The notes under the pieces are model-generated. The model was not told the DNA's origin and made no database searches. It saw only the letters and a list, made by a program, of their open reading frames with translations. Shown here piece by piece: positions 7,796 through 31,378 of a stretch of DNA of 31,378 nt; position 1 is the stretch's first letter, and each line of letters starts with the position of its first letter. The position numbers and the translations under genes were made by a program. Source of the DNA: a virus (taxonomy: Duplodnaviria; Heunggongvirae; Uroviricota; Caudoviricetes); IMG/VR virus record IMGVR_UViG_2648501787_000011, positions 1-31,378 of that record. One strand, written 5' to 3'.

Positions 7796-7991
7796 GCTGT
7801 TTCTCCAGTTGCTTTATCAGGCGGAACAGCTGCCGCAGGGGCAGCTGTTCCAGGTACTGAATGCTGAATCGCGAAGACAGGTTAACCAGCAGGTTCATCA
7901 GTGCCGCCGCCAGCGGCATCAGTTCGCCCCCGCGTTGCCACCTCCTCAAGCATTTCATCCAGCGCAGCGGCTTTCGTGCTGATAAGTTCAA
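7782..7991 (-). CDS. Candidate frameshift extension of tail assembly chaperone (alternate-frame ORF)
   Basis: Open frame, +1 relative to the chaperone ORF, overlaps its 3' end and ends 14 nt inside the tape-measure start. Region contains GCGGGGGCG (minus strand; C-run at 7927-7931 on plus). Unlikely to start independently at the track Met. Confidence 0.4.
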   Translation of the reverse strand: MNLSARKPLRWMKCLRRWQRGGELMPLAAALMNLLVNLSSRFSIQYLEQLPLRQLFRLIKQLEKQHGNR

Positions 7992-10120: not shown

Positions 10121-10305
10121 TATTTTTTCCCTCTGGTTTTGTTGTTATTTTTCGGAAGTGTGGTTATTTCCACATCTCCCTCGGCTTCACGGCGCAGCCA
10201 GTAAGCGCAGACATCGAGACGTTCCCCTTCCGGGGATAAATGCGCGCCATCCGGTTTACGGACACGAACGCTTTCCCGCGCTGGCTTAATCAGTTTCTGT
10301 TCCAT
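10120..10305 (-). CDS. Small hypothetical protein between gp38-like gene and sheath gene
   Basis: About 61 aa from an internal Met (MEQKLIK); its stop overlaps the sheath start codon; track ORF start at 10320 overlaps the upstream gene. Confidence 0.35.
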   Translation of the reverse strand: MEQKLIKPARESVRVRKPDGAHLSPEGERLDVCAYWLRREAEGDVEITTLPKNNNKTRGKK

Positions 10306-10897
10306 CGTCACCCCGTACATGGATCACGTCGTTAATCTCAGTATGTTCACCGCTACGCAGCGTTGTCCCGAGGCGCAGGAAGTCCGGGAGCGCAGCGAGA
10401 TCAAGCTCTTCATCCAGCTGAAATTCCTGCTCCCACGTCACCGCCCACATGGTGACGCCCAGCCCGTCGAGGCTGGCGGAGTAAATGTTGTCTGCCCGCA
10501 CGTCAGCAGCCATGCGTTCAGCCCCCATGCCCGCTGTGGCATCTGACGACAGCAGACGTTTGATCACCTTCCCGGCCAGCACTTCACAGCGCACGTCGCG
10601 GGAGTACCCCCACGAATCCGTCGCCATGATGTAAGCCACCCAGGTGACCAGACCGGACAGCCCGCCGCGCGGGTTAATATCCCGGACGCGCAGGGCAGCT
10701 ACCCGGATACAGCCGGTGCGACCGGACAGATAGCGTTTCACTTCATCGGGGCTGTTGAACTGGCCGATGTGACGCTCCACCACGTCGGCCCGGTCAGGGG
10801 TGTTTCCCTGAAGCGCTATTTTCAGCCAGGCCACAATGCGCTCTGCGGCCGCAACTGTGCTCCCCGGTGTGCGCAGTTCAGGGCGTTGTTCTGTCAT
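10286..10897 (-). CDS. Hypothetical virion protein, Mu gp38-like
   Basis: 203 aa; position in head-tail joining block. Confidence 0.55.
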   Translation of the reverse strand: MTEQRPELRTPGSTVAAAERIVAWLKIALQGNTPDRADVVERHIGQFNSPDEVKRYLSGRTGCIRVAALRVRDINPRGGLSGLVTWVAYIMATDSWGYSRDVRCEVLAGKVIKRLLSSDATAGMGAERMAADVRADNIYSASLDGLGVTMWAVTWEQEFQLDEELDLAALPDFLRLGTTLRSGEHTEINDVIHVRGDDGTETD

Positions 10898-11439
10898 GGC
10901 AGAACCTCCTTCCAGAAATGACTGATAACCTGTTGCAGCTCCTGCTGGTTGGCAGAAGACAGCCCCAGAAATTCACGTTGTGGAATATTCATCATGCGGT
11001 TATGTGCGCCGACGGTCTGCCAGACCGGATATTTCAGCGCCCGCCCGAAACACTGCGAGATAAGCCGCTTGTGGGCGCTGACCGGCACACTGCCGGAAAA
11101 GCCGTCATTCATGATGCGGGCATAATCCAGCGGTGAACCGATACGCACCACGCGGTTTTCCACAATGTACTGGATACTCTCCAGTAGATGACCTTCACCG
11201 CGCAGCAGACTCTGGTTGCCGTGGCGGGTCTTTTTGTACCCGTCAGACCAGTCCGGCCAGCGTTCGCCACCCGGACTGGTTTTCTCATCGATGATGCGGC
11301 GGCGGGTCTGTGATTCCACCACCGCACCGATGCTTTCCAGCAGCTCTGCCTGCAATGAACCATCTGCCAGCTTTTCAACGGCACGGCGGATATCCTCCAG
11401 CCGCTGGTCACCGCTGACCTGTACAGAAATCCCCATCAC
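10894..11439 (-). CDS. Virion morphogenesis protein, Mu gp37 (K)-like
   Basis: 181 aa; 4-nt overlaps with neighbours; position as in Mu. Confidence 0.55.
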   Translation of the reverse strand: MMGISVQVSGDQRLEDIRRAVEKLADGSLQAELLESIGAVVESQTRRRIIDEKTSPGGERWPDWSDGYKKTRHGNQSLLRGEGHLLESIQYIVENRVVRIGSPLDYARIMNDGFSGSVPVSAHKRLISQCFGRALKYPVWQTVGAHNRMMNIPQREFLGLSSANQQELQQVISHFWKEVLP

Positions 11440-12184: not shown

Positions 12185-12262
12185 GACTCTGCCTTTTAAA
12201 AGGCAGTTAAAAGGGCATTCACAGCGCCTTTTAACTGCGGGTTACAGATTACGGATGACGGG

Positions 12263-13165
12263 TTATGCCGGGGTGGTGATGAACGGACTGACCACGATGT
12301 CCACATCCTTGTACCAGATGTTGGAATCGCCGCCGTTTACCAGCATGGCGTCAATGATGCGCTTCGCAGCCGCGCGATTTTTCGGCCCCACCACAAGGGT
12401 GGTCGGGCGGATGCCCAGCGGTTCACCGTTGGTAGCCTTCATACCCAGCAGCAGATTGCTGGCCTTCTCGTAGTTCTCCGCTGTCAGTGCCGCACGGGAA
12501 CCGACGGCGGTCTGCCAGAAGCCGAAGCCCGCATTGCAGCGACCGTCCACCCCGTAAAGGAACTCGTTATTCTTGAAGGTGTGCTCGCTGTTCAGATCAT
12601 CCAGGGCTTCAAACTTAAAGGCGCGTCGCGTCTGCCAGATGATGGGTTTCAGTACCTGAGAATCATCAATCAGGAACCACGGTTCTCCCTGGTCTGATGC
12701 CGGGGTGCCGACAACGTTGCTGCAGGTGCCGTCGCCCAGCGGGTGGTCTTCATCAAAGAAGTTCTGACCGTCAAAACACAGGGTGTTAAACCCGGCACAC
12801 AGCAGGGGGTAACACAGCTTGTCCGGGAACTCCGACGTCTGGCGGCCATAGCGTTCAGCGATAATGCTGTACTGACCAATCTGATCGTCTTCAATGTGTT
12901 CGCGTTTAACGCGGATCGAACTTTCCCAGGTTTTGTTCGCAAGGGTGTAACCATAACCGTCCAGCGTTGCCATCTGACGGGCGCTGACCCATTCTTTAAT
13001 CTCCGGTAAATCCTTCATCCAGCCGTAGGTGTTGGAGGCGGACGAACTCGGGATTTCAGAGGCGATACGCTGCCACTGTGGGGTGACACCACTCAGACCA
13101 CGGGTATAAGCGGCGCTCAGACAGGTGGTCAGCGCGTGAAGGACTTCGGAAGTGACTGCTCCCAT
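12263..13165 (-). CDS. Major capsid protein, Mu gp34 (T)-like
   Basis: 300 aa; directly downstream of protease/scaffold gene; size matches Mu T. Confidence 0.85.
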   Translation of the reverse strand: MGAVTSEVLHALTTCLSAAYTRGLSGVTPQWQRIASEIPSSSASNTYGWMKDLPEIKEWVSARQMATLDGYGYTLANKTWESSIRVKREHIEDDQIGQYSIIAERYGRQTSEFPDKLCYPLLCAGFNTLCFDGQNFFDEDHPLGDGTCSNVVGTPASDQGEPWFLIDDSQVLKPIIWQTRRAFKFEALDDLNSEHTFKNNEFLYGVDGRCNAGFGFWQTAVGSRAALTAENYEKASNLLLGMKATNGEPLGIRPTTLVVGPKNRAAAKRIIDAMLVNGGDSNIWYKDVDIVVSPFITTPA

Positions 13166-14127
13166 CAGTTATTCTCCTGTTTTGGTTTAGCGGCGAGGAA
13201 CTCTTCCCCGGTAATACCCATGCTGCGGCACATCGCCAGTTCGGCGTCGGTCAGTGTCTGCGCGGGTTTATCCTTGCCCTGGCTGGGCTTGTCGTTGTTC
13301 ACCAGCGGCTGTGCACCTCTGGTGTACTCCGCAAACTGTTTGCGGCCTTCTTCCGTACGGCAGGTAGCAAGGAACATGTCACGGTTTGCCGGGGCCACTT
13401 TTCCGGCTTCGATGGCCGCATCCACAAGCGCTTCTGCTTCCTTAGCTTCCAGTTGCTGAAGGCGTTGTTCTGCGGTTTCGGCACGGTTCAGTGCCAGATT
13501 GTGGGTTTCCACCGGCACAAACTTCGTCAGATCAGGTGTCTGTGCGCGGTTCAGCGCCACCTGTTCGTTCTCCTGAAGTTGTTTAATGGCGGCCACGGTA
13601 TCGTCCACCGTGGCGGATTCAGCCAGCCCAAGCAGGCCGGTGATTTGCACAGGTACTGTCATCGGGTTTTTCTCCGTATTCAGTGCAGGAAAATCCAGGT
13701 TAGGTTTGTTGGTCAGCCCGACGCTGGACAGGCGTGTCACCGCACCGTCCGCGTCAAAGAAAAACGCCGGGCTGTAATAGCGGTAGCGGCGCTCGCTCAG
13801 CATCCACCGGGCGGACTCACTCCAGACAACACGGCCTTCAATGGTGCTGCTGTCCGTCACCCGCAGTTCCTCCACCCAGCCATACGCCGGAGCATCTTCA
13901 CCCCGCGGGCCTTTAATTTCGGTGGCGTGTTCAATGTCCACCGGAATTTTGATGTCGGACGAACGGGCAACCACCTCATGTGGATTGCGGTTAATCCACG
14001 TCCGGCCATCGCGCCCGGTGAACTCACCCGCAGGGACGAGTTCAAGCCATTCCGGCAGTTGAGCGGGTGTCAGCTCAGTGATGGGTTCTGGCAGGGAAAA
14101 ACACAGCGCCAGCAGTTCCGGTTGCAT
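13165..14127 (-). CDS. Head maturation protease with nested C-terminal scaffold, Mu gp32/Z (I)-like
   Basis: 320 aa; C-terminal half is coiled-coil rich (LQQLEAKEAEALVDAAIEAG); internal Met near EKNPMTVPVQI could start a nested scaffold as in Mu. Confidence 0.75.
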   Translation of the reverse strand: MQPELLALCFSLPEPITELTPAQLPEWLELVPAGEFTGRDGRTWINRNPHEVVARSSDIKIPVDIEHATEIKGPRGEDAPAYGWVEELRVTDSSTIEGRVVWSESARWMLSERRYRYYSPAFFFDADGAVTRLSSVGLTNKPNLDFPALNTEKNPMTVPVQITGLLGLAESATVDDTVAAIKQLQENEQVALNRAQTPDLTKFVPVETHNLALNRAETAEQRLQQLEAKEAEALVDAAIEAGKVAPANRDMFLATCRTEEGRKQFAEYTRGAQPLVNNDKPSQGKDKPAQTLTDAELAMCRSMGITGEEFLAAKPKQENN

Positions 14128-14176
14128 GTCAGTCTCCGTCGTTTGGGGTTACTGACGGTCAGTATGCGGAAGGCAG

Positions 14177-14200
14177 AAAAAAAGCCGGATTTACCGGCTT
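14177..14200 (-). terminator. Rho-independent terminator (minus strand) between F and I
   Basis: Minus strand reads AAGCCGG-TAAAT-CCGGCTT followed by seven T. Identical 27-mer recurs at 21738-21761. Confidence 0.6.
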
Positions 14201-14341
14201 CACTGAAAACGGGAAGAATACCCCCTTCAAAACCCCTTCAAAAACGCCACAGCGCCTTCAAAAACGTCAGAATGCACATTCACGCCATCAGAATAAAAAA
14301 CGCGTTTCTGATGCGTTTCAGGGGGATTTATGGCGGGAGGG

Positions 14342-19059: not shown

Positions 19060-19353
19060 TCAGTCCCTCGCACGGGGTTTTTTAACGCCCGGAACGCTGG
19101 ACAGGCCGTTTGCCACATCCTCGCCGCTGCCGGTGATTTCAGCCACGTAACAGCCGCCCACATCAGACAGACGAACCAGCCCCTGCTCGCGAAGCCATGC
19201 AAGCTGAGTGCGCACCACATCACGGGATACCTTATGACCGTAAGCCTGAAGGCAGGTCTGCAACACGGATTCATTCGCGCTGTCGCCACAGTCCAGCAGG
19301 GAACGCAGCAACACCAGACGACGGTCTTCAGTGAGGATCTCTTTCATCGCCAT
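19060..19353 (-). CDS. Hypothetical protein, possible winged-helix DNA-binding
   Basis: 97 aa; segment KVSRDVVRTQLAWLREQGLV resembles a recognition helix/wing; function unknown. Confidence 0.45.
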   Translation of the reverse strand: MAMKEILTEDRRLVLLRSLLDCGDSANESVLQTCLQAYGHKVSRDVVRTQLAWLREQGLVRLSDVGGCYVAEITGSGEDVANGLSSVPGVKKPRARD

Positions 19354-19658
19354 TAATTTTTTTCCTTTAACTCGTTCTCTAATAACAAATCGCTGATGCG
19401 GGATACCTGGCGGATGGATGGCCCCAGTTCTTTGATTTCTCCCCGCAGATTGCTGATATCCAGTTGCAGGCGGTGGAACTCATCACGGTCGGGTAAATGG
19501 TGTACCTGGCTTTCCACCACCGACACGCGGGAACGGAGTGAATCAAACTCTTCGCGTTTGACGTAGGTTTTCGCCAGAATCAACTGAAGCAGGTTTATTC
19601 CTGTCATCAGCAATGCCCACAGAATGGGCCAGTTGGCTCTGATCATTTCCCAGGACAC
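19353..19658 (-). CDS. Membrane-anchored coiled-coil protein (spanin/releasin-like candidate)
   Basis: 101 aa; N-terminal hydrophobic helix (WPILWALLMTGINLLQLIL) followed by coiled-coil; in lysis cluster. Confidence 0.5.
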   Translation of the reverse strand: MSWEMIRANWPILWALLMTGINLLQLILAKTYVKREEFDSLRSRVSVVESQVHHLPDRDEFHRLQLDISNLRGEIKELGPSIRQVSRISDLLLENELKEKN

Positions 19659-19870
19659 GTTTTCCTCCTGCGTTCCCGAATATGCTGACAGTCAATACAG
19701 GTCACCACATCCGGCAGCGCCGCAAGGCGTTGTGCCGGAATAACGTTCCCACAGTCATTGCAGCAGCCCCGACTATGGGGCGCTTCTTTTGTCCGCGTCT
19801 GCCAGGCGTTAACGACGCTCTGACGTTCGTTCATAACCACTTCACTGATGCGGTCGATTTCGTCGGTCAT
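19643..19870 (-). CDS. TraR/DksA-family C4 zinc-finger protein
   Basis: 75 aa with CCNDCGNVIP...CIDCQ (CxxC-N17-CxxC) motif characteristic of TraR/DksA-type zinc fingers. Confidence 0.6.
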   Translation of the reverse strand: MTDEIDRISEVVMNERQSVVNAWQTRTKEAPHSRGCCNDCGNVIPAQRLAALPDVVTCIDCQHIRERRRKTCPGK

Positions 19871-20475
19871 TTCGGCCCCGCAGACATTTTGTGACGGCTC
19901 GATTTGCTGTACCGGGCAAAGCCGTCCATGGTTCTTACTCCGAGATAGCCCAGCGCCGGGGTAAGCAACATCAGCGTGATATCCCAGTCCGGTGACGGCA
20001 TATGCAGTGTGATACCTCTGGCACCGGCAATGGCTCCGGCAATCTGGCCACAGGAGAGCAACAGCACATAGGTCAGACTGCTGTAACAGGAAAGACGGGC
20101 CAGCAGCGGGCGCGTCTGGCGCACATAGCTGTCCGCAGCGTTGTCACCATTGCGGATGGTTTCCTGCTGTTCGTGATGCGCGGCCTGCTCGTCAGCCAGC
20201 ACCAGCTTCTGCCGTTCCACCTCAAGCTGTTGTAACTGGACTTTCAGCGTTTCCAGTTGCATCAGTTGCTCCGGTGACAACGCCGTCAGTTGTTGTTCCA
20301 GAATGCGTTGCTGTTCGGTAACCGGCAGGCTTTCCCGGACGCTTTCCACCATACCGGCCACCGAGTCAGCGGCGGCAGATGTGCTACCACCAAACCAGCG
20401 CCCGACGGAACGAATCAGCCCCGGCCCGGCTTTCAGCAGAACAGAGGCGATGCCTGAAAGGGTTAACGGATCCAT
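19867..20475 (-). CDS. Hypothetical coiled-coil protein with C-terminal transmembrane segments (lysis-associated candidate)
   Basis: 202 aa; Q/L-rich coiled-coil centre; two hydrophobic helices near C-terminus. Confidence 0.5.
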   Translation of the reverse strand: MDPLTLSGIASVLLKAGPGLIRSVGRWFGGSTSAAADSVAGMVESVRESLPVTEQQRILEQQLTALSPEQLMQLETLKVQLQQLEVERQKLVLADEQAAHHEQQETIRNGDNAADSYVRQTRPLLARLSCYSSLTYVLLLSCGQIAGAIAGARGITLHMPSPDWDITLMLLTPALGYLGVRTMDGFARYSKSSRHKMSAGPK

Positions 20476-20873
20476 GAATCCCCCTTATGAAAACTGCGCT
20501 GATGTTTATAAAGTGCCGCGCAAAAGATACCGCCCAGCCAGAACGCCAGCTGATAAGGCTCCTTCAGATAAAGAAGGCCGAATGTCAGCATGAAAAGACC
20601 AACGGCCCAGACCACCCATGACCACACGACAATTCGAAGGGAGGCGGCCCGGAAACGCCTTTTGGGTTGCAGGCGATAAGGTACGTTGCCCAGCGGGAAA
20701 CTGTGAATCAGGCAGAGTGTCGCGCCGTATGCCAGCACCATGACCGCAAACGCCCGCCATCCGGCAAAACAGCTTGCCAGAAAAAGTACTGCCGACAGTC
20801 CCAGAAACGACCACTGGCACAACATAAAGCGGGAGTAAATAACGCGAACAAAAAGACTATTCATTCTGTGCAT
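20463..20873 (-). CDS. Polytopic membrane protein (holin-like candidate)
   Basis: About 136 aa from ATG 20873 (AAGGA 8 nt upstream) with 3-4 predicted TM helices. Track ORF extends to 21044 but that part overlaps the preceding ORF and is Arg/Trp-rich. Confidence 0.5.
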   Translation of the reverse strand: MHRMNSLFVRVIYSRFMLCQWSFLGLSAVLFLASCFAGWRAFAVMVLAYGATLCLIHSFPLGNVPYRLQPKRRFRAASLRIVVWSWVVWAVGLFMLTFGLLYLKEPYQLAFWLGGIFCAALYKHQRSFHKGDSWIR

Positions 20874-21084
20874 TGAGTTTTTCCTTGTACTTCTGGCACT
20901 GCCAGAAAATGTCCCGTGTATCCACGGAGTTCCAGCCACGCATGTAGTAGCTGGCGTGTGTACCGTCATGACCGGTATAGTCCACCGGCTCTGGCGGCGG
21001 ACCTCCGGCCATACGATGTAAAACCTCCTGACGCAGGCGGTCACGCCGCCCGGCTCTCAGCGAGGCATCCCAGCCTTTACCCAT
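20857..21084 (-). CDS. Hypothetical protein immediately downstream of endolysin
   Basis: 75 aa; start ~2 nt after the endolysin stop; no TM segment or lipobox. Confidence 0.4.
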   Translation of the reverse strand: MGKGWDASLRAGRRDRLRQEVLHRMAGGPPPEPVDYTGHDGTHASYYMRGWNSVDTRDIFWQCQKYKEKLNAQNE

Positions 21085-21085
21085 A

Positions 21086-21682
21086 TCACCCCCGCGTGGC
21101 GGACATGATGCCTAAAGGGGTATCGATGATTTCCAGACAGGCGTCGGTCAGCTTTTCCATGCGGTTAAACCAGCCGTTCAGGTATTTACCCTGGGCGGGT
21201 TTTGACTTGATGATGTCGGCATAAAAGCGGGAACGACGGACAATGCAGCGGGCCAGCAACCAGTCCGGGGTGGACAGACTCACGGCCTTACGGGTACGCG
21301 GGCCGATGATGCCGTCAGCATCCACATCAGCGGCTTCCTGCAAAATCCTGATAGCTTTTTTAACGCCATGCTGAACGGCTGCATCGAACACAAACATCGC
21401 CACGCCATCAGGCCACTGGTCACATCCGGCAGGCAGCCAGTAATCGCGCCAGTAAATCTGCGCGACCTGTTCGCGGGTTAAATCCCTGATGCGGGTATCC
21501 GGTTTACCGTCGCCGCTGACATCGGTTTTGCCGTCAATCACACCGTCGCGGCGGTCAGAAATGCCGTATTTGGTTTCGCCGCCACGGTCAGTGGGGTCAT
21601 TGACATAGACGCCTTCGATATCGGGACGCAGAATAAAATTCAGCGCATGTTCAAAGGCCGGGGAGAATTTCAGATTTTCCAT
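21086..21682 (-). CDS. Endolysin, GH108-type N-terminal domain plus peptidoglycan-binding domain
   Basis: 198 aa; N-terminal motif IEGVYVNDPTDRGGETKYGISD matches the GH108 signature EGGY-N...D-GG-T-YGI; no N-terminal hydrophobic SAR segment; AGGTG RBS 7 nt upstream. Confidence 0.75.
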   Translation of the reverse strand: MENLKFSPAFEHALNFILRPDIEGVYVNDPTDRGGETKYGISDRRDGVIDGKTDVSGDGKPDTRIRDLTREQVAQIYWRDYWLPAGCDQWPDGVAMFVFDAAVQHGVKKAIRILQEAADVDADGIIGPRTRKAVSLSTPDWLLARCIVRRSRFYADIIKSKPAQGKYLNGWFNRMEKLTDACLEIIDTPLGIMSATRG

Positions 21683-21737
21683 AAAAGCACCTGTGAAGCA
21701 GATTTAAACGTGGTCTGTTTCATGGTGCCGGAGGCAT

Positions 21738-21761
21738 AAAAAAAGCCGGATTTACCGGCTT
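21738..21761 (-). terminator. Rho-independent terminator (minus strand) between secreted-protein gene and lys
   Basis: Same AAGCCGG-TAAAT-CCGGCTT hairpin plus T7 tract as at 14177-14200 (27-nt identity). Confidence 0.6.
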
Positions 21762-21781
21762 CATTGAATTAAAAAAGATGA

Positions 21782-22261
21782 CTACTCATCACCTTTGATG
21801 GAGCAATCTATTACCATATCGTTACCCATCTTGAGAAATTTGGTTTGCATGAGAAAACCCTGTATCACATCAGTTAACCCATACCCTTCAACTTTTGTAG
21901 CTGAAACTACCATGTCAATAATTCGTTTCTGCTGTTTCTCTGTTAGTTCGCCAATTGCTGACTCCGCAACTCGCGAGCATGCCACAAAAGAAGACAACAC
22001 ACCTGAAGGATTGTTTTCATAATCCTTCACTGTCGTCGTTGAGCTGACGACTTTATTGTTGATCGTAAATACCCCGAATTTACTGTGGGCAGTTTCTGTT
22101 CCACCGTTCTTAATTGAATCGCCCCCTTTAAGAGGCTTCCAGCTATTTAGTGCAATGAGGTCTTTTTCTGTAAGACGTTTTTTGATGACATCTTCAGCTG
22201 GCAGTTTTGCCGCATTCGCGCAAAATACGCCCAGTAAAAGTATAAGAGGAAAGTATTTCAT
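21782..22261 (-). CDS. AT-rich secreted/periplasmic protein of unknown function (moron candidate)
   Basis: 159 aa with clear signal peptide MKYFPLILLLGVFCANA; lower GC than flanking phage genes; ATG overlaps the mor stop (ATGA). Confidence 0.65.
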   Translation of the reverse strand: MKYFPLILLLGVFCANAAKLPAEDVIKKRLTEKDLIALNSWKPLKGGDSIKNGGTETAHSKFGVFTINNKVVSSTTTVKDYENNPSGVLSSFVACSRVAESAIGELTEKQQKRIIDMVVSATKVEGYGLTDVIQGFLMQTKFLKMGNDMVIDCSIKGDE

Positions 22262-22659
22262 GACTCATCCTTAAATAGTTGCATTTGATATTTTTCACGC
22301 TCCAGTCGGCGCATTCTTTTGATGGCCTGATATACCGTTTTGTATGTCACTTTGTAACGCTGCACCAGCTCCGCTACGTTTTTCCCATCAAAATCATGCC
22401 AGATGCGCATGTCTCTGATAAGATTTTCCAGTATTTTCCCTTTCGGAACATATACCTGAATCCCACCGATATGATTGCAAATCGCCACTACCAGCTCAAG
22501 GGAGTGGGCAGGGTTAACTCCAAGCCTTATCAGCTCCTGTCGCAACAGAGCATTCAGCTCAGCCAGTAAAGATGGGAATCCCGATTTTTCCTGAACATCA
22601 TCAAAATATTCAAGGATACTGTCGTCCTGATAATCACCAAATAAATCTAGCTCTTTCAT
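22258..22659 (-). CDS. mor: Mor/C-family transcriptional activator (Mor by position)
   Basis: 133 aa; C-terminal HTH GKNVAELVQRYKVTYKTVYQAIKRMRR and N-terminal LFGDYQDD resemble Mu Mor; ATGA overlap with upstream gemA-like gene. Confidence 0.75.
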   Translation of the reverse strand: MKELDLFGDYQDDSILEYFDDVQEKSGFPSLLAELNALLRQELIRLGVNPAHSLELVVAICNHIGGIQVYVPKGKILENLIRDMRIWHDFDGKNVAELVQRYKVTYKTVYQAIKRMRRLEREKYQMQLFKDES

Positions 22660-23207
22660 AGAACTATTCTCCCGCTGTTTCTGGCGCGGGCATACGCACT
22701 GGTCAGTGCATCATATCCGCGCAGTTCCCGCCCGGTTTCGCTCACAGGTAAAGGCACGCCATGTCGGGCAAAGGCTTCCCGAATGCAGCGCATATGCCAC
22801 TGTTTGAGCGTTTCGAGCACAACCTGCAACGATTCCCCATGACACCAGGCAAGCGTGGAAACACCCTGACCGCCATTACGTCTGGCCGTCAGGCGTTCAA
22901 CGTATTTGTCCAGCGCGACGTCGCTGATATCGGAGACGAAACCATCAAGAAACATCTGCTGCCAGATTTTATAAATCTTCTCGCGCGGTGTGACATACCC
23001 CTTAAAGCGACGGCGGGGATGTTTTTTCTGCTTCTTAAAACCGCGCTCTTTCATGGCATTGAGCACCTGTTCCAGTTGTGTAACGGACAGCTCGCGGCAA
23101 CTGGTCTTGCCCGTGCACTGCACCAGAAAGGCGCGGTAAGTGTCATCGTCGAGGTGCAACTCCCGGCGGGCAACATGAATTAATTTAATCAGGGATGTGC
23201 GGCTCAT
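22656..23207 (-). CDS. gemA: GemA-like protein (Mu gp16)
   Basis: 183 aa; directly upstream of mor with overlapping stop/start, as gemA-mor in Mu. Confidence 0.6.
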   Translation of the reverse strand: MSRTSLIKLIHVARRELHLDDDTYRAFLVQCTGKTSCRELSVTQLEQVLNAMKERGFKKQKKHPRRRFKGYVTPREKIYKIWQQMFLDGFVSDISDVALDKYVERLTARRNGGQGVSTLAWCHGESLQVVLETLKQWHMRCIREAFARHGVPLPVSETGRELRGYDALTSAYARARNSGRIVL

Positions 23208-23520
23208 TATGTCCCCCGGATTTAAAAATTAATTCAGTGTTGAATAGCTCTTTACTCATTCGCTGTAGCACATCAAGGGCGGCAACTGCCGCCACTTTAT
23301 CCTGGCTGGCAATGATTCCCCGCAACTCTTCGATAATCCATGCAGGACTTAATGATTCAGCAATCATCATGCGCTTTTCTGAAATTAAATTTTCTCTGGC
23401 CTGCTCAAAGTGCTGGTATACAACATTATCCAGAAAATAATTTACATCTTGTTCTGACATACCACTGGAAATTAAGGTTGCAGCCATTAAATCAGCATCA
23501 GTAATCATCTGTATTTTCAT
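23185..23520 (-). CDS. AT-rich hypothetical protein (early accessory region)
   Basis: About 111 aa from ATG 23520 (GAGG 9 nt upstream); AT-rich relative to neighbouring phage genes; no recognisable motif. Confidence 0.45.
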   Translation of the reverse strand: MKIQMITDADLMAATLISSGMSEQDVNYFLDNVVYQHFEQARENLISEKRMMIAESLSPAWIIEELRGIIASQDKVAAVAALDVLQRMSKELFNTELIFKSGGHNEPHIPD

Positions 23521-23695
23521 TTCGTAATACCTCTTCGCAATAAAAGATTTCACCGGGATAACGTTTTTGTATGCGCTCCATCACCTGCATACATGCCTGC
23601 TCTGTGGGCCAGATTTTTTCTGTTACCGGGATAGCATCACAGGCATCATTCCCGCAGGTGCCAACCAGCAGGACAAAGCCAATTGACTTAATCAT
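23498..23695 (-). CDS. Small Cys-containing signal-peptide protein (possible lipoprotein / exclusion-type protein)
   Basis: About 65 aa from ATG 23695 (MIKSIGFVLLVGTCGNDACD...); hydrophobic N-terminus followed by Cys; four Cys in total. Confidence 0.4.
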   Translation of the reverse strand: MIKSIGFVLLVGTCGNDACDAIPVTEKIWPTEQACMQVMERIQKRYPGEIFYCEEVLRNENTDDY

Positions 23696-24227
23696 GCTCA
23701 CTGGCTTCCTGTGTTGCCGCCGGAACCGGTGAATAATCAAGAATGAGATAGCGCATGACGTGGTCGGTGATATTCCAGCCACTGGAGCCACAAATAAAAC
23801 GTCCCAGCCGGATATCGATATACGCCATCACAAAACGGGGCATTCCCTGTTTGCACATTTCATCGCCCACTTCTGCAACGATGTAAACCGACTCGCAGGT
23901 CAGTACGCCTGTCGCAAATTCTTTTGCCAGTGCCGGAATGGCATTGCCTTCCAGCCAGGGCAAAGAGCGGCGGAACGCACACCATTGAGCATCATCAACA
24001 GCGGGGTGCTCCGTTGTGTTTCGTCTTACCGGCGGCGTCGGGCGAGGGCGCGGAACATCATAAAACCCGTTGCATTCTGTCAGCATTCCGGCATCAACCG
24101 CATCACGCAGGAAATACACCATTGAAGAAGGTGGCATATTCATTTTTTCCGCCAGAACGCCACAGGTCAGACGTCCGTAAGCCCGTAATAATGTACTGAC
24201 ACCGTTCAGAACTTTTGCATCAACCAT
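23688..24227 (-). CDS. Hypothetical early protein
   Basis: 179 aa ORF between gam and the AT-rich ORFs; Cys-rich; no recognised domain. Confidence 0.5.
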   Translation of the reverse strand: MVDAKVLNGVSTLLRAYGRLTCGVLAEKMNMPPSSMVYFLRDAVDAGMLTECNGFYDVPRPRPTPPVRRNTTEHPAVDDAQWCAFRRSLPWLEGNAIPALAKEFATGVLTCESVYIVAEVGDEMCKQGMPRFVMAYIDIRLGRFICGSSGWNITDHVMRYLILDYSPVPAATQEASEHD

Positions 24228-24325
24228 TTTTTATTCCTGAGTAATCTGTTTCAGGCGCGAGCAATCCCCTGACGCATCGCGCCATAATTAAAAGAAAGTG
24301 AATTAATTAAATATTCGTGGTGGTA

Positions 24326-24850
24326 TTAAATACCGGCTTCCTGTTCAAACGGAATAATAGAAAAATCTTCAATGCCCGATTTAACTGTAATTCCGGCAAC
24401 ACCTGCGACCGCTTTCGGTTCCAGTAAAATCGCTTCCTTGTTGATTTCCTGTTTCGTGCGAATAAAACGTTGCAGGCCAAGACGCTCCAGCGTTTCCATC
24501 ACCGCATCCACTCCGCGAATACTTACCGATGGTGGGCGCTGACGCCATTGCACATCACCGGTAACGAGGTTAGCACTTTTCACTTTGCCGCCGTTCGTCA
24601 GCTCGTCACGGTTCGCTTCACACCATCCCTGAACGCCTTTTGAAAGGGTTTCAATACTGGTTTTAAGGGGTGCAATCTGTGAGGCGTATTTCTCCGTAAT
24701 CTCAGCGATAGCGTCATTCATTTCCGTTTCAAGTCGTGCCGCTTCGCGTTGCAGGTCACCAATCCGGCGGATATCACATACCACGGCATCGCGGGATTGC
24801 GGAACATAAGTCGCTGCGGCGTTCCTGATTCGTTTTGCTGACTTAGCCAT
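24326..24850 (-). CDS. gam: Host-nuclease inhibitor Gam (Ku-like DNA-end-binding protein)
   Basis: 174 aa, same length as Mu Gam; sequence recognised as Mu Gam-like. Confidence 0.85.
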   Translation of the reverse strand: MAKSAKRIRNAAATYVPQSRDAVVCDIRRIGDLQREAARLETEMNDAIAEITEKYASQIAPLKTSIETLSKGVQGWCEANRDELTNGGKVKSANLVTGDVQWRQRPPSVSIRGVDAVMETLERLGLQRFIRTKQEINKEAILLEPKAVAGVAGITVKSGIEDFSIIPFEQEAGI

Positions 24851-24870
24851 ATAAATAAAGCTCCTGTTAA

Positions 24871-25170
24871 TTAATATTCGCTGTATACAATACTGGATAC
24901 AGCACGATTGCTTAATTCCATCTTTTTGGCTATCACATGAATAGCCAGCCCTTCTTTATAAAGTTCACGACACAAATATTTGTCGTGCTCACTGATTCGG
25001 TATGCACACAACGATATTCCGTGCCTTCTGGCATGTGCCCGGAGGGCGGTTGTGGCAACGTTCAGTTTTTTCGCCATTTCTTCAACGGTCATTTTTCCGA
25101 CACTGGCTTCGATAAATTCCCGGTCTTCGCGTGACCAGCGTTTACGATTACACATCATTCCGGTCACCAC
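24871..25170 (-). CDS. Hypothetical early protein with helix-turn-helix-like segments
   Basis: 99 aa; segments MTVEEMAKKLNVATTALRAHARRHG and LAIHVIAKKMELSNRAVSSIVY look HTH-like. Confidence 0.45.
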   Translation of the reverse strand: MVTGMMCNRKRWSREDREFIEASVGKMTVEEMAKKLNVATTALRAHARRHGISLCAYRISEHDKYLCRELYKEGLAIHVIAKKMELSNRAVSSIVYSEY

Positions 25171-25590
25171 TCAGTACAACAGGGGTTCGCGCAGTGATGC
25201 CGGAATATGCCGCAACGATAACTGAACTGCTTTCAGGGCAAGGGAAGAATACGCCCCCTGCGTCCAGCCTTTCGCCATTTGCCGGTACTCGCGCCAGATG
25301 TTCTGCCACTGCTCCCGTGCGTCCGGGTCTGACGCGCTGATGTATTCTCGGTCCATGACGTATTCCCATAAATCCACATTGAAAGCATTGCCAAACGTAA
25401 TGGCGCGGAATACCGCCTCTCCGCAATAACGCGCACAAATGCTGTAATGGTCAAATGCAATCAGGTAAGTCTTTTCGCCATACCCCTCAACTTCGCGCGC
25501 GCAAATAAACTCGCGTAAGTCTCCGCCATTGTTATTACGCATTTTGATTCGAATTAATGCCTGGATTTCGTTTCTGATTCTGGCGTTCAT
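25171..25590 (-). CDS. Hypothetical early protein
   Basis: 139 aa ORF adjacent to the next gene start; no recognised motif. Confidence 0.45.
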   Translation of the reverse strand: MNARIRNEIQALIRIKMRNNNGGDLREFICAREVEGYGEKTYLIAFDHYSICARYCGEAVFRAITFGNAFNVDLWEYVMDREYISASDPDAREQWQNIWREYRQMAKGWTQGAYSSLALKAVQLSLRHIPASLREPLLY

Positions 25591-25604
25591 TGTCAGCGCT
25601 CCTT

Positions 25605-25868
25605 TCAGTGACGTGTTCCTTCAACTGTCGTTTTTGTGACACTGCCACCCGTGATGACGCCGTCATTTTTCAGAATTTCAATGGCCTCATGGGTTGACTC
25701 GCAAACAATATCCCGACTTTTTTCCAGAACCAGTAACGCTACCATGCCAGCGAGTGTACATTCATCGCCGTCCAGCTCTGCACTGTGTTCTACGTTAATA
25801 CTGGTACGTAAACGCTGCCCTTTAACTTCAGATGTCGCATTTTTGATTTCGATAATGACTTTTGCCAT
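25605..25868 (-). CDS. Hypothetical early protein
   Basis: About 87 aa from ATG 25868 (GAGGAA 8 nt upstream); track start 25922 overlaps the kil-like ORF. Confidence 0.45.
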   Translation of the reverse strand: MAKVIIEIKNATSEVKGQRLRTSINVEHSAELDGDECTLAGMVALLVLEKSRDIVCESTHEAIEILKNDGVITGGSVTKTTVEGTRH

Positions 25869-25900
25869 TTTGTTATTCCTCACAAATAAATAAGCCGTTA

Positions 25901-26128
25901 TTAACGCCAGATAATCTGACAACCATTAAGACGGGCCGTCCATACTGAACGGGCAACCCCTGATTTATGCTCCATAATCCTGACAGCATTCCTGACAAGC
26001 TCCGGTGGTGGGCAGGTGATTTCAAGCACCGGGCGGGCCACGCCCAGCCAGGATTCGTTGACGTGGCTGCCGCGCTCCTGTAACCAGCTCTTTACTTCCG
26101 TTGCCATTTTGATATTCCGTGACATCAT
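25901..26128 (-). CDS. kil: Kil-like small protein
   Basis: About 75 aa from ATG 26128 (AAGGAG overlapping B stop); position right after B and size match Mu kil. Confidence 0.5.
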
Positions 26129-26141
26129 AATTTCGCTCTCC

Positions 26142-27080
26142 TTACGTGCGCAGCAGGGTTGAAATATCAACGTCCAGGTCTAATTCACGGAAAGCCTGAC
26201 GCAGATAATCTTCATTAACACGTTCACCTTTACCGTGGGCGGTCATGGCAGCAAGGCGCAGCGAGTGGTTCAGGATGCGAAGCGCACCTGGCTTTTGTGC
26301 AATCTGCTGTAATAATTCCCGCTCGTTTTCGCCGGTAATTTGCCAGGCATCCGCAATGGCTTTTACATCATCAATTTTGGTTTTATTGATTGCCGTCCGT
26401 TTGGCAATACGGGAAAACAGGCGGGCAAATTCAACCGTTCTGTTACCACCGGTCATGTTTGAATAAACACGGTGATTCCCCATCAGAACAAGGCCAATAC
26501 GGGCGGACTCCTGTAACAGGCGGAGTTCTTCCAGAACCTCAGCGCCAAGATGATCAGCTTCGTCGATAATGACCAGCCCCTGGGTACCTTCAAGACGGCG
26601 TCGCAAAGCGCGGGAGAGTGGCCCCTTACGGCGTGGTGCGTCATTCATTCCCAGTTCATAAGCCAGTTCAGTCAGGCATTCCAGAACACTGGCACAGGAT
26701 GGGGTAATGGTAATCATCCAGACATTGTTATTGGTGCGACGAAATTCGCGGGCCGCTTCAGTTTTTCCCACACCTGGATTACCGCAGATAACAGAAATAC
26801 TTTCAGTCAGGCTGGCAAAACGCATACTCGTCCAGATTTGGCGTGCTGTTCTGGTTTCCACAAAACGTGGTGGTTCTGGCAGCTCTGCGGCACGGTGATA
26901 GTTCTCCAGCCAGCGTTCCAGCATCTGCGCAACACGTTCATTGTCGCCGTTGTACTTGTTATTCACGAATGCGCTTAACGTTCCTGCGGCCACGCCAGAC
27001 TCGCGTGCAATTTGTGCATAAGTCGCTTTTTCACTTTCTACAAGCGTGCGCAGTCCTGCGCGAATATCGGAAATATTCAT
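26142..27080 (-). CDS. B: Transposition target DNA activator B (AAA+ ATPase MuB)
   Basis: 312 aa; Walker A GNPGVGKT; recognised as near-identical to Mu B along its length. Confidence 0.95.
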
Positions 27081-27118
27081 CTGAATAACCTCGTAATTAA
27101 ATTTTGTTTAAACGTTAA

Positions 27119-29107
27119 TTAAATGGCTTTTTTACGTCTGTTCTGTTCCAGAATATCCAGCGAATGATTCAGATATTCATCACGATCAGTTTCATATTCA
27201 TCATCGGGTTCCTGGTATTTCACCTGCACCGTGTTACCGGAAGGCCGGAAAATACCAACAACCCTTGATTCTGGCGCTGCTGCTTCGGCTATCTGCGGCA
27301 GCAGTTCAGCAACTTCCAGCGCGTCCATTTGCTTCTGCGCCTTAATGGCTGCTTTAGTTGCAGATTTCAGTTGTTTCTGGCGGCGGCGATATTCGCGGCC
27401 TGCCGCAGCATCATTAAATGCAACAGGTGCCAGACATTCCGCTTCACAGATAAACCGACCGTCCAGGGTGTAACAATAAACCGTGCTGTGTAACTGCTGT
27501 GGATCAAACCTGACCACAACTTTTTTCACGCCGGCATTCATTAACGCCATGTTGTAATAAACGTTTTTCGCGCCTTTAAGGGAGCCGCCAACTTTAAGCG
27601 TAAACTCGCCTTTGCGTGAAACGTTCACCGCCTCGGCAGGCAGTAACAGCATCCGTTTTTGTTCTTCGGTTGGCTTACGCACAATCGTTCTGGCGTATTC
27701 ACGCTCGAAAACATCATCAAACGAGAGTTTGCCCCCGCACATTTCTGTTTCACGGCCTGTTCTGGCATTGAACATCGCAACACCTTCAGCAAGGGTTTTC
27801 AGAAACAGCTCTGCATCAACAGCACGGTCGCCATAGTTATCAGGTTTTGCCTGCGGATTTGGCCCCGTATATGCGCCAGCCAGTGCCGGATGCTTATCAA
27901 TGTATTCTTCAAGCCCACCAACACCGAAAGCGCGTTCAACAGGTTTTGCCTGGCCCCAGCCTTTACCGGCAACAACGCTTGTCCAGTGCATTTTTGCGCC
28001 CATCAGTAAAAACAGCCCCTTTGGATCGTCCTCTTTCACTTTAAAGCGGTAACGATTGGGCGCGCCCCCCGTCAGCCATTTATTCGCTGCACCACGGGTG
28101 TTATCAATGGTGATGTGAAAATCTTCCGGGATGCCGTAGCGTGTCACCACATCCATGAATGAGAGGCGAATTGAATCGATGTTCTCGCTTACATCGCAGC
28201 GCCAGCCCAGAATTTTTCGGGTTTTCACATCCTGCCAGAACCATGTTTTCGGGCGGATCACATCACCGTTAAACCAGCGTACAAAGACGTTATGCAGATA
28301 ACCGTCGCCGTTGATCCACTGCATGGCGTCCAGGTGTTCCACAGTTCGCTGCTGTGCCGGTATCAGATGCATCAGTGCATGTTCACCTTCACGGCAGGCA
28401 ACAACCATTGCCTCGTCCAGTTGTTGAATCCGGCGAAAGGCCGTGGCACGGGAGGGAATACTCCAGCCATGCTCGCGGGCTGCCAGTTCCAGACGCTCAT
28501 AACATTTGCGGAAGGCGGGTTTTTCCGGTCGCAGATAATCTGCAATCAGAAACTGCCAGGCATCCTCGTCAAATTCACTTTTGTGAACGTTGCGACGAGA
28601 TGCACCACGTCCATCAACAAGTGCAGCCGCCCAGTCAGGCTTCGCAAACTTCTGTACCTGGTAATACTTGTCCCGCAAAGTGGATGCGCTGACCTGGTAA
28701 TGGCCTGCAACGGTCGCAAATGCCGTTTTCGTTGAAATCCCCTGGTTCAGCATTTCGTCTGCAGCCTGAACCGCAGGCAACCATTTTTCAGCAAGTCTGC
28801 GCTGGGAATCGCTGGCGTTATCCCATTTGCTCCACAGTGCCTCACGATCATAATCATGGGCTTCCAGCGTGGGGCGGGCGATTTCAAAACGGCCCTGGCT
28901 TGTTTCAATTCTCCCTTGTTGCAACAGAATTTCAGCACGTAATGTGACAGGAAATGATTTGATATTGAATTCAAATGATACACCTTTAGTTCCTGCAACC
29001 TGCCTGAACTCCCAGCCTTCTCTTTGTGCCTTACGTGTAATGTTAGTGGCTTGCTTTGGTAAACCTGCCAAACCGAGCAACTCTTTTGCTGTATACCATT
29101 CTTTCAT
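27119..29107 (-). CDS. A: DDE transposase A (MuA), D108-type N-terminal domain
   Basis: 662 aa; from about residue 70 onward recognised as Mu A; first ~65 aa differ from Mu and resemble the c repressor N-terminus in this window. Confidence 0.95.
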
Positions 29108-29114
29108 AGCGCAC

Positions 29115-29336
29115 CTAGTATCGAGACGGCCAAATATCTTGCGGTGTCATTCCCAGTGCATCTGCAATGATTTTCTCCGCTTTCGGATATCTCTTATCCA
29201 AAGCATTTTTTAATGTTGAAGACGAAAGATGATTAGATCTTCCCAATTCAGCTAGTGACATATTGCGTTTTCGTAGCGCTGCAACGATGTCAGCTCTGTG
29301 CCAATCTTGGCTGTTAGTTCTTTTATTCATATGCAT
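29115..29336 (-). CDS. ner: Ner DNA-binding regulator
   Basis: 73 aa (D108 Ner length as I recall it; Mu Ner is 75 aa); conserved DWHRADI..A.L...ELGR and IWPSRY C-terminus; first early gene upstream of A. Confidence 0.9.
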
Positions 29337-29521
29337 TTCATGTAATCCTTTCAGATTCCCCCGTGAGCTACGCTATAAAGTAGCTCACGGCATATCGTGC
29401 AATGTAGTGTGGAATCACTTTCAAATCAATAGTGATTTGAGAGGATTTACCGCAATTTTGCATAACGGCATGATTTTTATATGAATTTATTTTATCTCTA
29501 TTGAAATCACTAGGATTTTAA
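29337..29521. promoter_or_regulatory. Immunity/operator region between ner and c (divergent promoters, Ner and repressor sites)
   Basis: Perfect inverted repeat CCGTGAGCTAC-N8-GTAGCTCACGG at 29361-29390; palindrome TCAAATCA-ATAG-TGATTTGA at 29421-29440; repeated (G)AAATCACT 9-mers at 29411-29419 and 29504-29512; AT-rich stretch at 29470-29500. Confidence 0.7.
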
Positions 29522-30046
29522 ATGATGTCTTTTGAAATCAAAGAATGGTTTAATGCGAAAGAGCTGGAAGGGATGCCTGGTGTACCAAAGTTGGCGACTA
29601 ACATTACCAGGAAAGCTGTGGCGGAAGATTGGGTAAAACGTCAGCGTCACGGTGGGAAAGGTGTCGCTTATGAGTATCACATCAACAGTCTGCCAGAAGA
29701 AACACGCAGGGCCATTAAAGGAGCCTCACTTTCTGATAAACCAGTGCATACATCAATCGCCCATACAGTTGATGAGAGGCTAATTTATGCAATGAGCTTC
29801 TTAACACCAGATGAGCAGGCCGCAGCTGTGGAGATCATTCGTGTAGCAGGGATTAAAGGTCTTATGCCTACAATTGTCAGTAAAGATAAGGCATTAGAGG
29901 CATTAGGGATTACTGTGGAGCAACAGAAAACCCTGCAAACTCTTCAGGCATTACCACCGGAAAAAGTGAGAGAGATTTTGTCTCAGTATGAAGGCAAAGA
30001 ACATAATTTCCCTGTAAGAGAAAACGATGTAAAGAAGGCTGTATAA
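29522..30046 (+). CDS. c: Repressor c (Mu/D108 immunity repressor)
   Basis: 174 aa on opposite strand to early operon, between operator and attL; N-terminus shares a DNA-binding domain with A ([26 protein letters not shown]); C-terminus LPPEKVREILSQYEG...KKAV resembles Mu c. Confidence 0.85.
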   Translation: MMSFEIKEWFNAKELEGMPGVPKLATNITRKAVAEDWVKRQRHGGKGVAYEYHINSLPEETRRAIKGASLSDKPVHTSIAHTVDERLIYAMSFLTPDEQAAAVEIIRVAGIKGLMPTIVSKDKALEALGITVEQQKTLQTLQALPPEKVREILSQYEGKEHNFPVRENDVKKAV

Positions 30047-30179
30047 CAACCAGGTAATGGCTAAGACATAAACTTCACTCCAGGTTATTACATATGTAAG
30101 ATACCCAAACAGTGATGATTGTTTTTGATACACAGCACTTGCTGAAAGCCTGGTTGTTACCGTTTTTGAAGCATTTTTG

Positions 30180-30385
30180 AAGCTGTACTTGAAATGATGC
30201 GTGAAGTAATTGCTTTTCGTGTCTTTAATGAATCAAAAGCTGTTTCCAACAATCTTTCGCGTTTCAAGATGTAACGGCTAAAATCTATCCTACAGGCTTG
30301 CAAGCCCCGCTAAATCTAATCCCGCCAAATCCCGAATAATCCAATGTCCTCCCGGTTTTTTTCGTACTTCACGTGAATCAATACA
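30180..30385 (-). repeat. Mu-type left end (attL) with MuA-binding sites
   Basis: Reverse complement starts TGTATTGATTCACGTGAAGTACGAAAA (L1-like); second site around 30258-30275 contains TGAAACGCGAAAG (L2-like); further CGAAAA repeat inward. Confidence 0.8.
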
Positions 30386-30397
30386 ATGTTCAATTCC

Positions 30398-31378
30398 TTA
30401 CTTACTGATAAGACGGTCAAGGGCGACAGCCGCGATAATTAATCCGCCCATCACCACCAGTTGGTAATAGGTTTGTACCTGCAAAATATTCAGACCGTTG
30501 TTGATGGTGCCGATGATCAACCCGCCAATCACCACAGAGAAAATGCGCCCCTTGCCGCCGAAGAAACTGGTGCCGCCAATGATGGCGCTGGCAATGGCAT
30601 AGGTTTCAAAACCCATACCGGCAAGCGGTTCTGCGGCACCGAGTCGTGCAGTTGAGACGACGCCTGCCAGACCTGCACAAACACCGGAGATGATAAACAC
30701 CACCAGGATGTGGAATTTCACGTCAATCCCGGAATAGAACGCCGAGTTTTTGTTGCCGCCCAGTGCGTAGATGTTGCGCCCGAGCCGCATACGCGTTGTC
30801 AGAAACCAAAGGATGAGCGCGACAATTAGCGAGAAGATAACGGGGACAGGTATCCCAATTACGCTGGCGGCAAAGAAGTTCACGAAGTCAAATGAGAAGC
30901 CGTATACCGAGTTGGCATCGGAGATCACCAGCGTGATCCCACGGAAAATAGCGTTGGTGCCAAGGGTGATAATGAACGGGTGTAGTCCCGTCCAGTTGAC
31001 CAGGCAGCCGTTGATCGCCCCCAGTGCGCCGCCAACCAGTACACCGCCAATCAGCGCCGCGAGAAACGGATCAATACCTGCCAACATCAGTTTAGCGGTC
31101 ACCATACCGGAAAGCGCCAGAATCGCGCCAACCGAAAGGTCGATACCAGCGACCAGGATAGCGAAAAACTCGCCCATGCCGATCAATACCGTCACGGAGC
31201 TTTGCACAAAAATCTGGGTAATATTATTGGTGGTCAGAAAATATTCTGACGACAGCGAACCAAAAATGGCGACGATGATTGCCAGGATAAAAAAGGTGCC
31301 GTATTTATCCCAGAACAGCGCAAAGTTGAACGGTTTCTTCTCGCTCGCTTCGCTTTTTACTCTTGTGGTAAAGCCCAT
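30398..31378 (-). CDS. Host sugar ABC transporter permease (RbsC/AlsC family)
   Basis: 326 aa polytopic membrane protein; start codon is the last 3 nt of the window. Length and family fit a D-allose/ribose-type permease, but the gene name is not verifiable here. Confidence 0.85.
   Translation of the reverse strand: MGFTTRVKSEASEKKPFNFALFWDKYGTFFILAIIVAIFGSLSSEYFLTTNNITQIFVQSSVTVLIGMGEFFAILVAGIDLSVGAILALSGMVTAKLMLAGIDPFLAALIGGVLVGGALGAINGCLVNWTGLHPFIITLGTNAIFRGITLVISDANSVYGFSFDFVNFFAASVIGIPVPVIFSLIVALILWFLTTRMRLGRNIYALGGNKNSAFYSGIDVKFHILVVFIISGVCAGLAGVVSTARLGAAEPLAGMGFETYAIASAIIGGTSFFGGKGRIFSVVIGGLIIGTINNGLNILQVQTYYQLVVMGGLIIAAVALDRLISK

Follow-up and report, generated by a model that had tools for sequence, protein, structure and literature searches.

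The stretch of DNA considered here (the window, which comprises the 31,378 nucleotides of IMG/VR virus record IMGVR_UViG_2648501787_000011) is filled for the most part by a Mu-like prophage of Escherichia coli, which is read on the minus strand. One question posed by this prophage is how its late genes are switched on. In phage Mu the late activator C, which is 37% identical to the activator Mor, is encoded at 9963-10385, just upstream of the endolysin gene lys (10480-10995). An earlier sequence-only reading of the window, which had made this comparison correctly, found no equivalent of C and offered three explanations, namely that a single Mor-like protein drives the late promoters directly, that a 97-amino-acid (97-aa) protein has taken over the role of C, or that the prophage cannot express its late genes. 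The interval on which it had focused, 21086-22659 on the minus strand, does contain three genes, for a Mor-family protein, a 159-aa open reading frame (ORF) and the endolysin, and the gene 5' of lys is indeed the signal-peptide-like 159-aa ORF. The features of this interval, and of a second one before the head genes, are the following.

22258-22659, minus strand: Mor-family gene, 133 aa
21782-22261, minus strand: 159-aa ORF with a signal-peptide-like N-terminus (MKYFPLILLLGVFCANA), the last gene of the early operon
21750-21765, minus strand: candidate Mor site 1, AATGA-AGCCGG-TAAAT, 68 nt upstream of lys, with a 5-6-5 layout and the spacer of Mu Pm
21738-21762, minus strand: hairpin and run of seven T over site 1, likely the intrinsic terminator of the early operon
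21722-21727, minus strand: -10-like hexamer CACCAT, 22 nt after site 1, with a predicted start at about 21714
21086-21682, minus strand: endolysin gene lys (Pfam GH108 and PG_binding_3), the first gene 3' of site 1
14189-14204, minus strand: candidate Mor site 2, AGTGA-AGCCGG-TAAAT, 62 nt upstream of the head protease gene, in a 214-nt gap
14177-14201, minus strand: hairpin and run of seven T over site 2, likely the terminator of the operon that runs from lys to head morphogenesis
14161-14166, minus strand: -10-like hexamer CATACT, 22 nt after site 2, with a predicted start at about 14153
13165-14127, minus strand: head protease gene (the position of Mu I), the first gene 3' of site 2

By sequence and position the 133-aa protein is an orthologue of Mor. 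Its match to PF08765 (105.4 bits against a cut-off of 24.9, E 2e-30) spans profile positions 3-107 of 107, and it belongs to PHROG 532, 'late transcriptional activator'. Its identity is 63% to Mu Mor and 31.5% to Mu C, with phmmer E values of 1.9e-52 and 1.3e-15, respectively, while among PDB structures it matches Mor (1rr7) with an E of 4e-50 and C with an E of 5e-13. The recognition-helix stretch, which reads VTYKTVYQAIKRMRRL in the window protein, VTFNTVYKAIRRMRRL in Mu Mor and LSQPQIYQIIARQRKL in Mu C, is likewise of the Mor type. Because of these identities, the match to 1rr7, the position after gemA and the recognition helix, the converse assignment, according to which the 133-aa protein would be C and a divergent Mor would be hidden upstream, is excluded. 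Proteins of the Mor/C family are small, with a length of about 100-150 aa, and have an acidic N-terminal half and a basic C-terminal half containing a helix-turn-helix (PMC2582627); in the window protein the N-terminal half has 12 D+E and 4 K+R, the C-terminal half has 9 D+E and 15 K+R, and residues 91-118 give weak matches to HTH_28 and HTH_23. The motif GG.Q.Y.P.G, the beta-strand linker between the dimerisation and DNA-binding domains, is also present, and G64, G65, Q67, Y69, P71 and G73 are invariant in a 15-sequence alignment that includes Mu Mor.

The same protein carries ELDLF near its N-terminus (22642-22656) and QMQLF near its C-terminus (22258-22275), which resemble the beta-clamp-binding motifs of MuC, Qx[D/E][L/M]F at the N-terminus and QPDLF at the C-terminus (PMC12867686); Mu Mor ends in QPSLL. 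A C-terminal Q..LF was considered as a marker that might separate single Mor proteins from the Mor proteins of phages having both Mor and C, and was rejected for lack of a clean split (31/57 against 4/23).

That the window holds no second gene of the Mor/C family is borne out by searches of all six frames, cut at stop codons into 722 segments of at least 25 aa. Run with --max and queried with the window Mor and with the Mor and C of Mu, phmmer gave one match only, the next best having E > 0.3, and two profile hidden Markov models (HMMs), one derived from 15 Mor orthologues and the other from these plus Mu C, gave the same single match, the next best having E > 1; nor was there any other match to PF08765 among the proteins of the early and lysis regions. 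As a positive control, the C of Mu is picked up by the Mor-only profile with an E of 8e-19, so that a paralogue of like divergence would have shown up. An activator resembling C might nonetheless have been overlooked, either because it lies beyond the window, which ends before the right end of the prophage, or elsewhere in the host genome, or because it has diverged too far. Since the window stops short of that end, two complete E. coli relatives were searched, L003 (NZ_CP086627, which is 98% identical over window positions 1-25000 and has com and mom at its right end) and L001, and each proved to have a single family member. Together with the sensitivity of the profile, and with the finding, described below, that the heads of the late operons lack C-type boxes and have Pm-type boxes that already account for their promoters, this makes an overlooked C very unlikely.

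The evidence that a single Mor could suffice lies in the gaps before lys (99 nt) and before the head protease gene (214 nt), which share an identical string of 26 nt, TGAAGCCGGTAAATCCGGCTTTTTTT. It occurs in the window only at sites 1 and 2, with none expected by chance, and its counterpart in Mu, located after mor, differs in having TTAAT instead of TAAAT. The hairpins over the two sites fold at -12.6 kcal/mol each (RNA fold), with a z-score of -4.3 for site 1. Transcription is predicted to start near 21714 and 14153, which is 32 and 26 nt before the start codons of lys and the protease gene, respectively. At neither promoter is there a -35 element, the best resemblance to TTGACA at a spacing of 15-19 nt being no more than 2 matches out of 6.

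The comparison with Mu depends on placing its Mor site correctly. This site is described as 16 bp long, with a G/C-rich hexanucleotide spacer between inverted repeats of 5 bp each, and as extending from -51 to -36 (Ma and Howe 2015, PMC4390567). The primer JM1 of the same study, which covers -87 to -48 and has degenerate bases at -57 and -52, begins with GAAATACC (PMC4390567); this start maps to Mu 9137, which puts +1 at Mu 9224. The Mor site of Mu Pm derived in this way is AGTAAAGCCGGTTAAT, or AGTAA-AGCCGG-TTAAT, at Mu 9173-9188, and the derived -10 is TATCCT at Mu 9211-9216. The hairpin after Mu mor covers the right two-thirds of the Mu site. Taking the hairpin itself, GCCGG-N5-CCGGC, as the Mor dyad was tried and dropped, because the -10-like hexamer then comes 7 bp too close, whereas, given the published layout and JM1, the true site begins 6 nt upstream of the stem and the geometry agrees.

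When the window sites are aligned in register with Mu Pm (with its TATCCT) and 20 other sites, sites 1 and 2 and Mu Pm have in common the spacer AGCCGG, then CCGGCT followed by six T and, after a further 10 nt, a hexamer whose second base is A and whose sixth is T. The distance of 22 nt from site to hexamer at both window sites equals that of Mu, and places the centre of the site about 30.5 bp before the start of the -10. In a pattern search for the 16-mer with up to 3 mismatches the window gave 9 matches against 1.15 expected, sites 1 and 2 being top-ranked, and in a position-weight scan they again rank first, with 25.4 and 25.1 bits; the corresponding scan of Mu yields one strong site only, Pm, with 22.7 bits. 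Weaker matches at 824, 6479, 19031, 19583, 24328 and 25193 were discarded as being without a -10 at the right spacing. The match at 24328-24343 (CAGGAAGCCGGTATTT), where gam has its 3' end, is a weak 16-mer of Mor type identical to Mu 6308-6323, and as no -10 follows it at the right spacing, it probably reflects coding conservation.

The boxes of C, in contrast, are missing from these positions. The consensus TTAT-N5-6-ATAA (PMC12867686) does not occur upstream of lys or of the protease gene; the sole match in the window, at 25965-25977, is in the early region, and has an equivalent in Mu at 4463. Likewise, on the phage strand between 13000 and 22900 no canonical sigma-70 promoter is predicted apart from one match inside gemA.

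The distribution of genes and sites among relatives points in the same direction. An alignment-based scan of genome contigs gave 10 long loci with Mor orthologues of 62-70% identity (in Pluralibacter, Raoultella, Klebsiella, Serratia, Kluyvera and Brenneria), all 10 of which have one Mor/C gene and a Mor site that precedes the endolysin start by about 75-85 nt, while four (L005, L006, L011 and L012) have a second site before the protease gene. Of 80 related IMG/VR contigs, 57 carry a single Mor/C gene and 23 carry two, and the distal site before the protease gene is found in 50/50 single-Mor loci, counting those that reach at least 9.3 kb past mor, as against 0/16 loci with both Mor and C. The absence of C is hence real but ordinary among Mu-like prophages, representing a variant of a known system, and the implication of the sequence-only reading that it is unusual does not hold, a single Mor/C gene being the majority condition. 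Many of the distal sites lack the right arm of the hairpin and the run of T, and keep the 16-bp site together with its spacing to CATACT, CACACT or GACACT, from which it follows that the conserved, selected unit is the Mor site and not merely a terminator.

This last point bears on the view that the 26-nt boxes are intrinsic terminators or insulators and nothing else, late activation being due to the gp26-like winged-helix protein, to a TraR/DksA-type protein (19643-19870) or to a host factor. It is true that both boxes score as terminators and fold accordingly, and that the TraR/DksA-type zinc-finger protein has no counterpart at the position of Mu gp24. However, the conserved unit reaches 6 nt 5' of the stem and takes in the loop, neither of which a terminator constrains, the stem is nearly invariant across genera, sites persist with their spacing where the right arm and T-run have been lost, and the presence of the distal site follows the absence of C. 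Both candidate proteins, moreover, are encoded within the very operon whose activation they would have to bring about. The 97-aa ORF suggested in place of C (19060-19353) is 61% identical to Mu gp26, which in Mu is present beside C, so that it is not a replacement for C. The TraR/DksA-like ORF, which has no similarity to Mu gp24, was also rejected as late activator, being located inside the late operon and having no sites that point to it. We therefore regard terminators without Mor control as unlikely.

For the possibility that the prophage is regulatorily defective and its late genes silent, there speaks the absence of C and nothing further. The late ORFs are all intact and syntenic with those of relatives, a Mu-type left end is present at 30363-30385, and several enterobacterial genera, as well as IMG/VR contigs, share the same C-less architecture with intact ORFs. 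A defect of this kind is thus the most improbable of the alternatives, and the suggestion that late genes cannot be expressed found no support.

In addition to the two sites at the heads of operons, a third candidate is found within the baseplate cluster.

3218-3233, minus strand: candidate Mor site 3, AGGGA-AAACGG-TAAAT, inside a gp45-like baseplate gene, with a position-weight score of 18.0, the third best in the window
3189-3194, minus strand: -10-like hexamer TATTAT, 23 nt after candidate site 3

Third codon positions across this site are conserved at 0.86-1.0 in homologues down to 57% protein identity, compared with about 0.55 at nearby codons having an invariant amino acid, and the same variant of the site, AGGGAAAACGGTTAAT, precedes the protease gene of another phage (L095), where it serves as the Mor site. 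At the homologous codons of Mu both half-sites are absent. Judged from its sequence and conservation, site 3 is probably a Mor site, though this is not established.

From the genes present, from the sites and the way in which they align with Mu Pm, and from the occurrence of the sites among relatives, we infer that Mor binds these sites, that transcription starts close to the predicted positions and that it is activated there, in a two-tier cascade dependent on Mor only. The early operon (ner-A-B...gemA-mor-orf159) would make Mor, which would bind the 16-bp sites of Pm type whose centres lie about 43.5 bp before the starts predicted for the lysis/packaging and head operons and, probably, the internal site of the baseplate cluster. 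At each of these, Mor would recruit the sigma-70 RNA polymerase to a promoter having a -10-like hexamer and no -35. The hairpin and T-run overlapping sites 1 and 2 would end the upstream operon and, because of this overlap, the module would close one transcription unit and, under the control of Mor, open the next, as at Mu mor/Pm. C would not be needed, because promoters that carry C boxes in Mu carry Mor boxes here. Since copies of the Mor site precede both the lysis and the head blocks, the single Mor most likely activates the late genes directly, a conclusion in which we have good confidence. Among the explanations of the sequence-only reading it is thus direct control by Mor that stands, supported by the Pm-type sites ahead of lys and I and by the complete separation of the relatives that have C from those that lack it, whereas the 97-aa substitute, the defective prophage and the supposed rarity of the arrangement fall away.

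Several observations weigh against this cascade. The half-sites AATGA or AGTGA and TAAAT differ from the AGTAA and TTAAT of Mu, and the inverted repeat is weaker (3/5 as against 4/5). The -10 of lys, CACCAT, is poor, where relatives carry CACTAT, CAAAAT or CAATAT. Site 3 is in coding sequence, so that part of its conservation could be driven by the protein. The relatives are redundant and all enterobacterial, so that the counts of 50/50 and 0/16 weigh lineages unevenly and do not represent independent events. Upstream of com-mom in L003 there is no convincing Mor-type site and no convincing TTAT-N6-ATAA C box, which leaves at least one late function unexplained. Finally, a search of the open-access literature found no binding, transcript or reporter data for the prophage or its close relatives. 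Nor was a description of Mor-only wiring found in open-access papers, subscription work (on FluMu, B3, BcepMu and others) having been outside the search and possibly containing one. As to the com-mom region itself, positions 9514-9786 of L003, upstream of com, hold a GATC cluster like that of Mu, and short stretches near com match the Mu mom promoter region in inverted orientation.

A more tentative proposal, which we hold to be possible rather than probable, is that the Mor-only cascade is ancestral in enterobacterial Mu-like phages and the three-tier cascade of Mu derived, the single Mor filling the roles of both Mor and C. In that case a diverged copy of mor, the present C, would have entered a Mor-driven lys operon together with a Plys of its own and a new endolysin, and with new boxes at PI and PP, and such an insertion into a single operon would explain why the homologue of gp18, a 'middle' gene in Mu, is inside the lys operon here. 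The modules composed of Mor site and terminator might then be regarded as reusable units that stop transcription and allow it to restart only with Mor. The roles of the single Mor may also include a coupling to replication through the beta clamp, of the MuC type, since its QMQLF end resembles QPDLF.

If the cascade is as proposed, the consequences are chiefly comparative, and no new kind of regulator is revealed. The early-middle-late cascade of Mu is the textbook model for transposable phages, and yet most of the relatives sampled are without the third tier. For a family of prophages common in E. coli, the located Mor sites provide a concrete map of the late transcription units that can be put to the test; they suggest that one activator family can be rewired by swaps of box sequence at fixed promoter positions, and they offer a natural comparison for what the C tier adds in Mu, for example in timing or in control of the toxic mom.

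The remaining layout of the prophage provides the setting for these sites. The host is E. coli, and the DNA flanking the prophage matches 3437 records. Further features are listed here.

30363-30385: Mu-type left end, TGTATTGATTCACGTGAAGTACG, adjoining the stop codon of a host ABC-permease gene
29522-30046, plus strand: repressor gene
22656-23207, minus strand: gemA homologue (Pfam PF06252 GemA, E 2.1e-31), whose stop overlaps the start of mor, as in Mu
20857-21084, minus strand: homologue of Mu gp18 (E18), 70% identity, E 4e-37, directly after lys

After the repressor, the minus-strand order is ner, A, B, a semi-essential region with gam, gemA and the Mor-family gene; the late genes run on to position 591, where the window is cut inside the gene that follows a YmfQ-like gene, so that the right end of the prophage is outside the window. 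Homologues of the head protease in relatives are annotated 'phage protease', and further down the lys operon there are homologues of Mu gp25 (DUF2730), gp26 and gp27. A mechanically called ORF of 193 aa at 20463-21044 begins too early; relatives annotate in its place a 136-aa membrane protein at 20463-20873, which overlaps the gp18 homologue by 17 nt and, while occupying the position of Mu gp19, has no significant similarity to it.

The composition of the prophage is mosaic. The early region (21000-31378) has a G+C content of about 47-52% and contains stretches 84-90% identical to Mu and D108, while the late region (1-21000), at about 56-60% G+C, has no nucleotide match to Mu and is 98% identical to prophages of several complete genomes. 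Relatives that share this late region have a different early region, as does L001 with its 695-aa transposase, which implies recombination near gemA/mor.

Between mor and the Mor site/terminator module there is a slot, occupied here by the 159-aa ORF (phrog_38744, of unknown function and without a Pfam match). In L005-L015 and L064-L143 the slot contains a 160-170 aa protein of exported type or a membrane protein of about 106 aa, or is empty, in which event the Mor site follows mor by 5-6 nt. The slot has the look of a cargo ('moron') position whose content is expressed together with the early operon.

Other sequence elements accompany the late operons. From the predicted start to the protease codon (14128-14156) there is an inverted repeat, GTCAGT...ACTGAC, with an inner CCGTC...GACGG (-9.3 kcal/mol, z-score -2.7), a longer version of which, CTGTCCGTC...GACGGACAG, occupies the same place in relatives from several genera; it may be a structure of the 5' untranslated region affecting translation or RNA stability. 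The 214-nt gap also holds, at 14224-14265 and 14286-14313, three GTTTT(T)GAAGG direct repeats and a hairpin with an 8-bp stem, CATCAGAA...TTCTGATG; the corresponding G-I gap of Mu contains the strong gyrase site. In the two remaining small gaps of the late region, strong inverted repeats without T-runs are present at 7823-7851, ahead of the tape-measure gene, and at 12203-12238, following the major head gene, and may be signals for RNA processing or attenuation.

In comparison with known systems, the closest is that of Mor and Pm in Mu. In both phages the mor gene directly follows gemA at the end of the early operon, and in both a 16-bp site of 5-6-5 layout, containing AGCCGG, followed by CCGGCT and a T-run, and separated by 22 nt from a -10 without a -35, overlaps the hairpin after that operon. 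The difference is one of deployment. Mu has one such site, heading the short middle operon gp18-gp19-gp20-C, after which Plys serves lys, whereas the window has two exact copies and one candidate, placed before the lysis/packaging genes, the head genes and probably part of the baseplate cluster, and from the first of these a single operon runs from lys into the packaging genes. There is accordingly no middle operon encoding C, and the gp18 homologue comes after lys.

By location the window sites correspond instead to the C-dependent promoters of Mu, Plys, PI, PP and Pmom, two of them preceding lys and I and the candidate third falling within the tail/baseplate cluster. Those promoters also combine a -10 lacking a -35 with an activator site near -43.5 (PMC2582627), and in Mu neither Mor nor C activates the promoters of the other (PMC4287176). 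The window differs from them in that TTAT-N5-6-ATAA is absent at the equivalent positions and that its activator is far closer to Mor than to C. The third site does not coincide exactly with its Mu analogue, inasmuch as the candidate of the window is in the gp45-like gene, while Margolin et al. in 1989 reportedly placed the internal promoter PP of Mu in N, upstream of P.

Beyond Mu, the proteins named as hallmarks of transposable phages are Mor, GemA, the portal and the transposase, and do not include C (PMC9239132; PMC7761591), and for KS10 a single Mor gene is listed directly upstream of head genes (PMC2628397). In the passages concerned the genes of phages having Mor only are annotated and the target sites are not identified, whereas in the window the sites have been located and covary with the absence of C.

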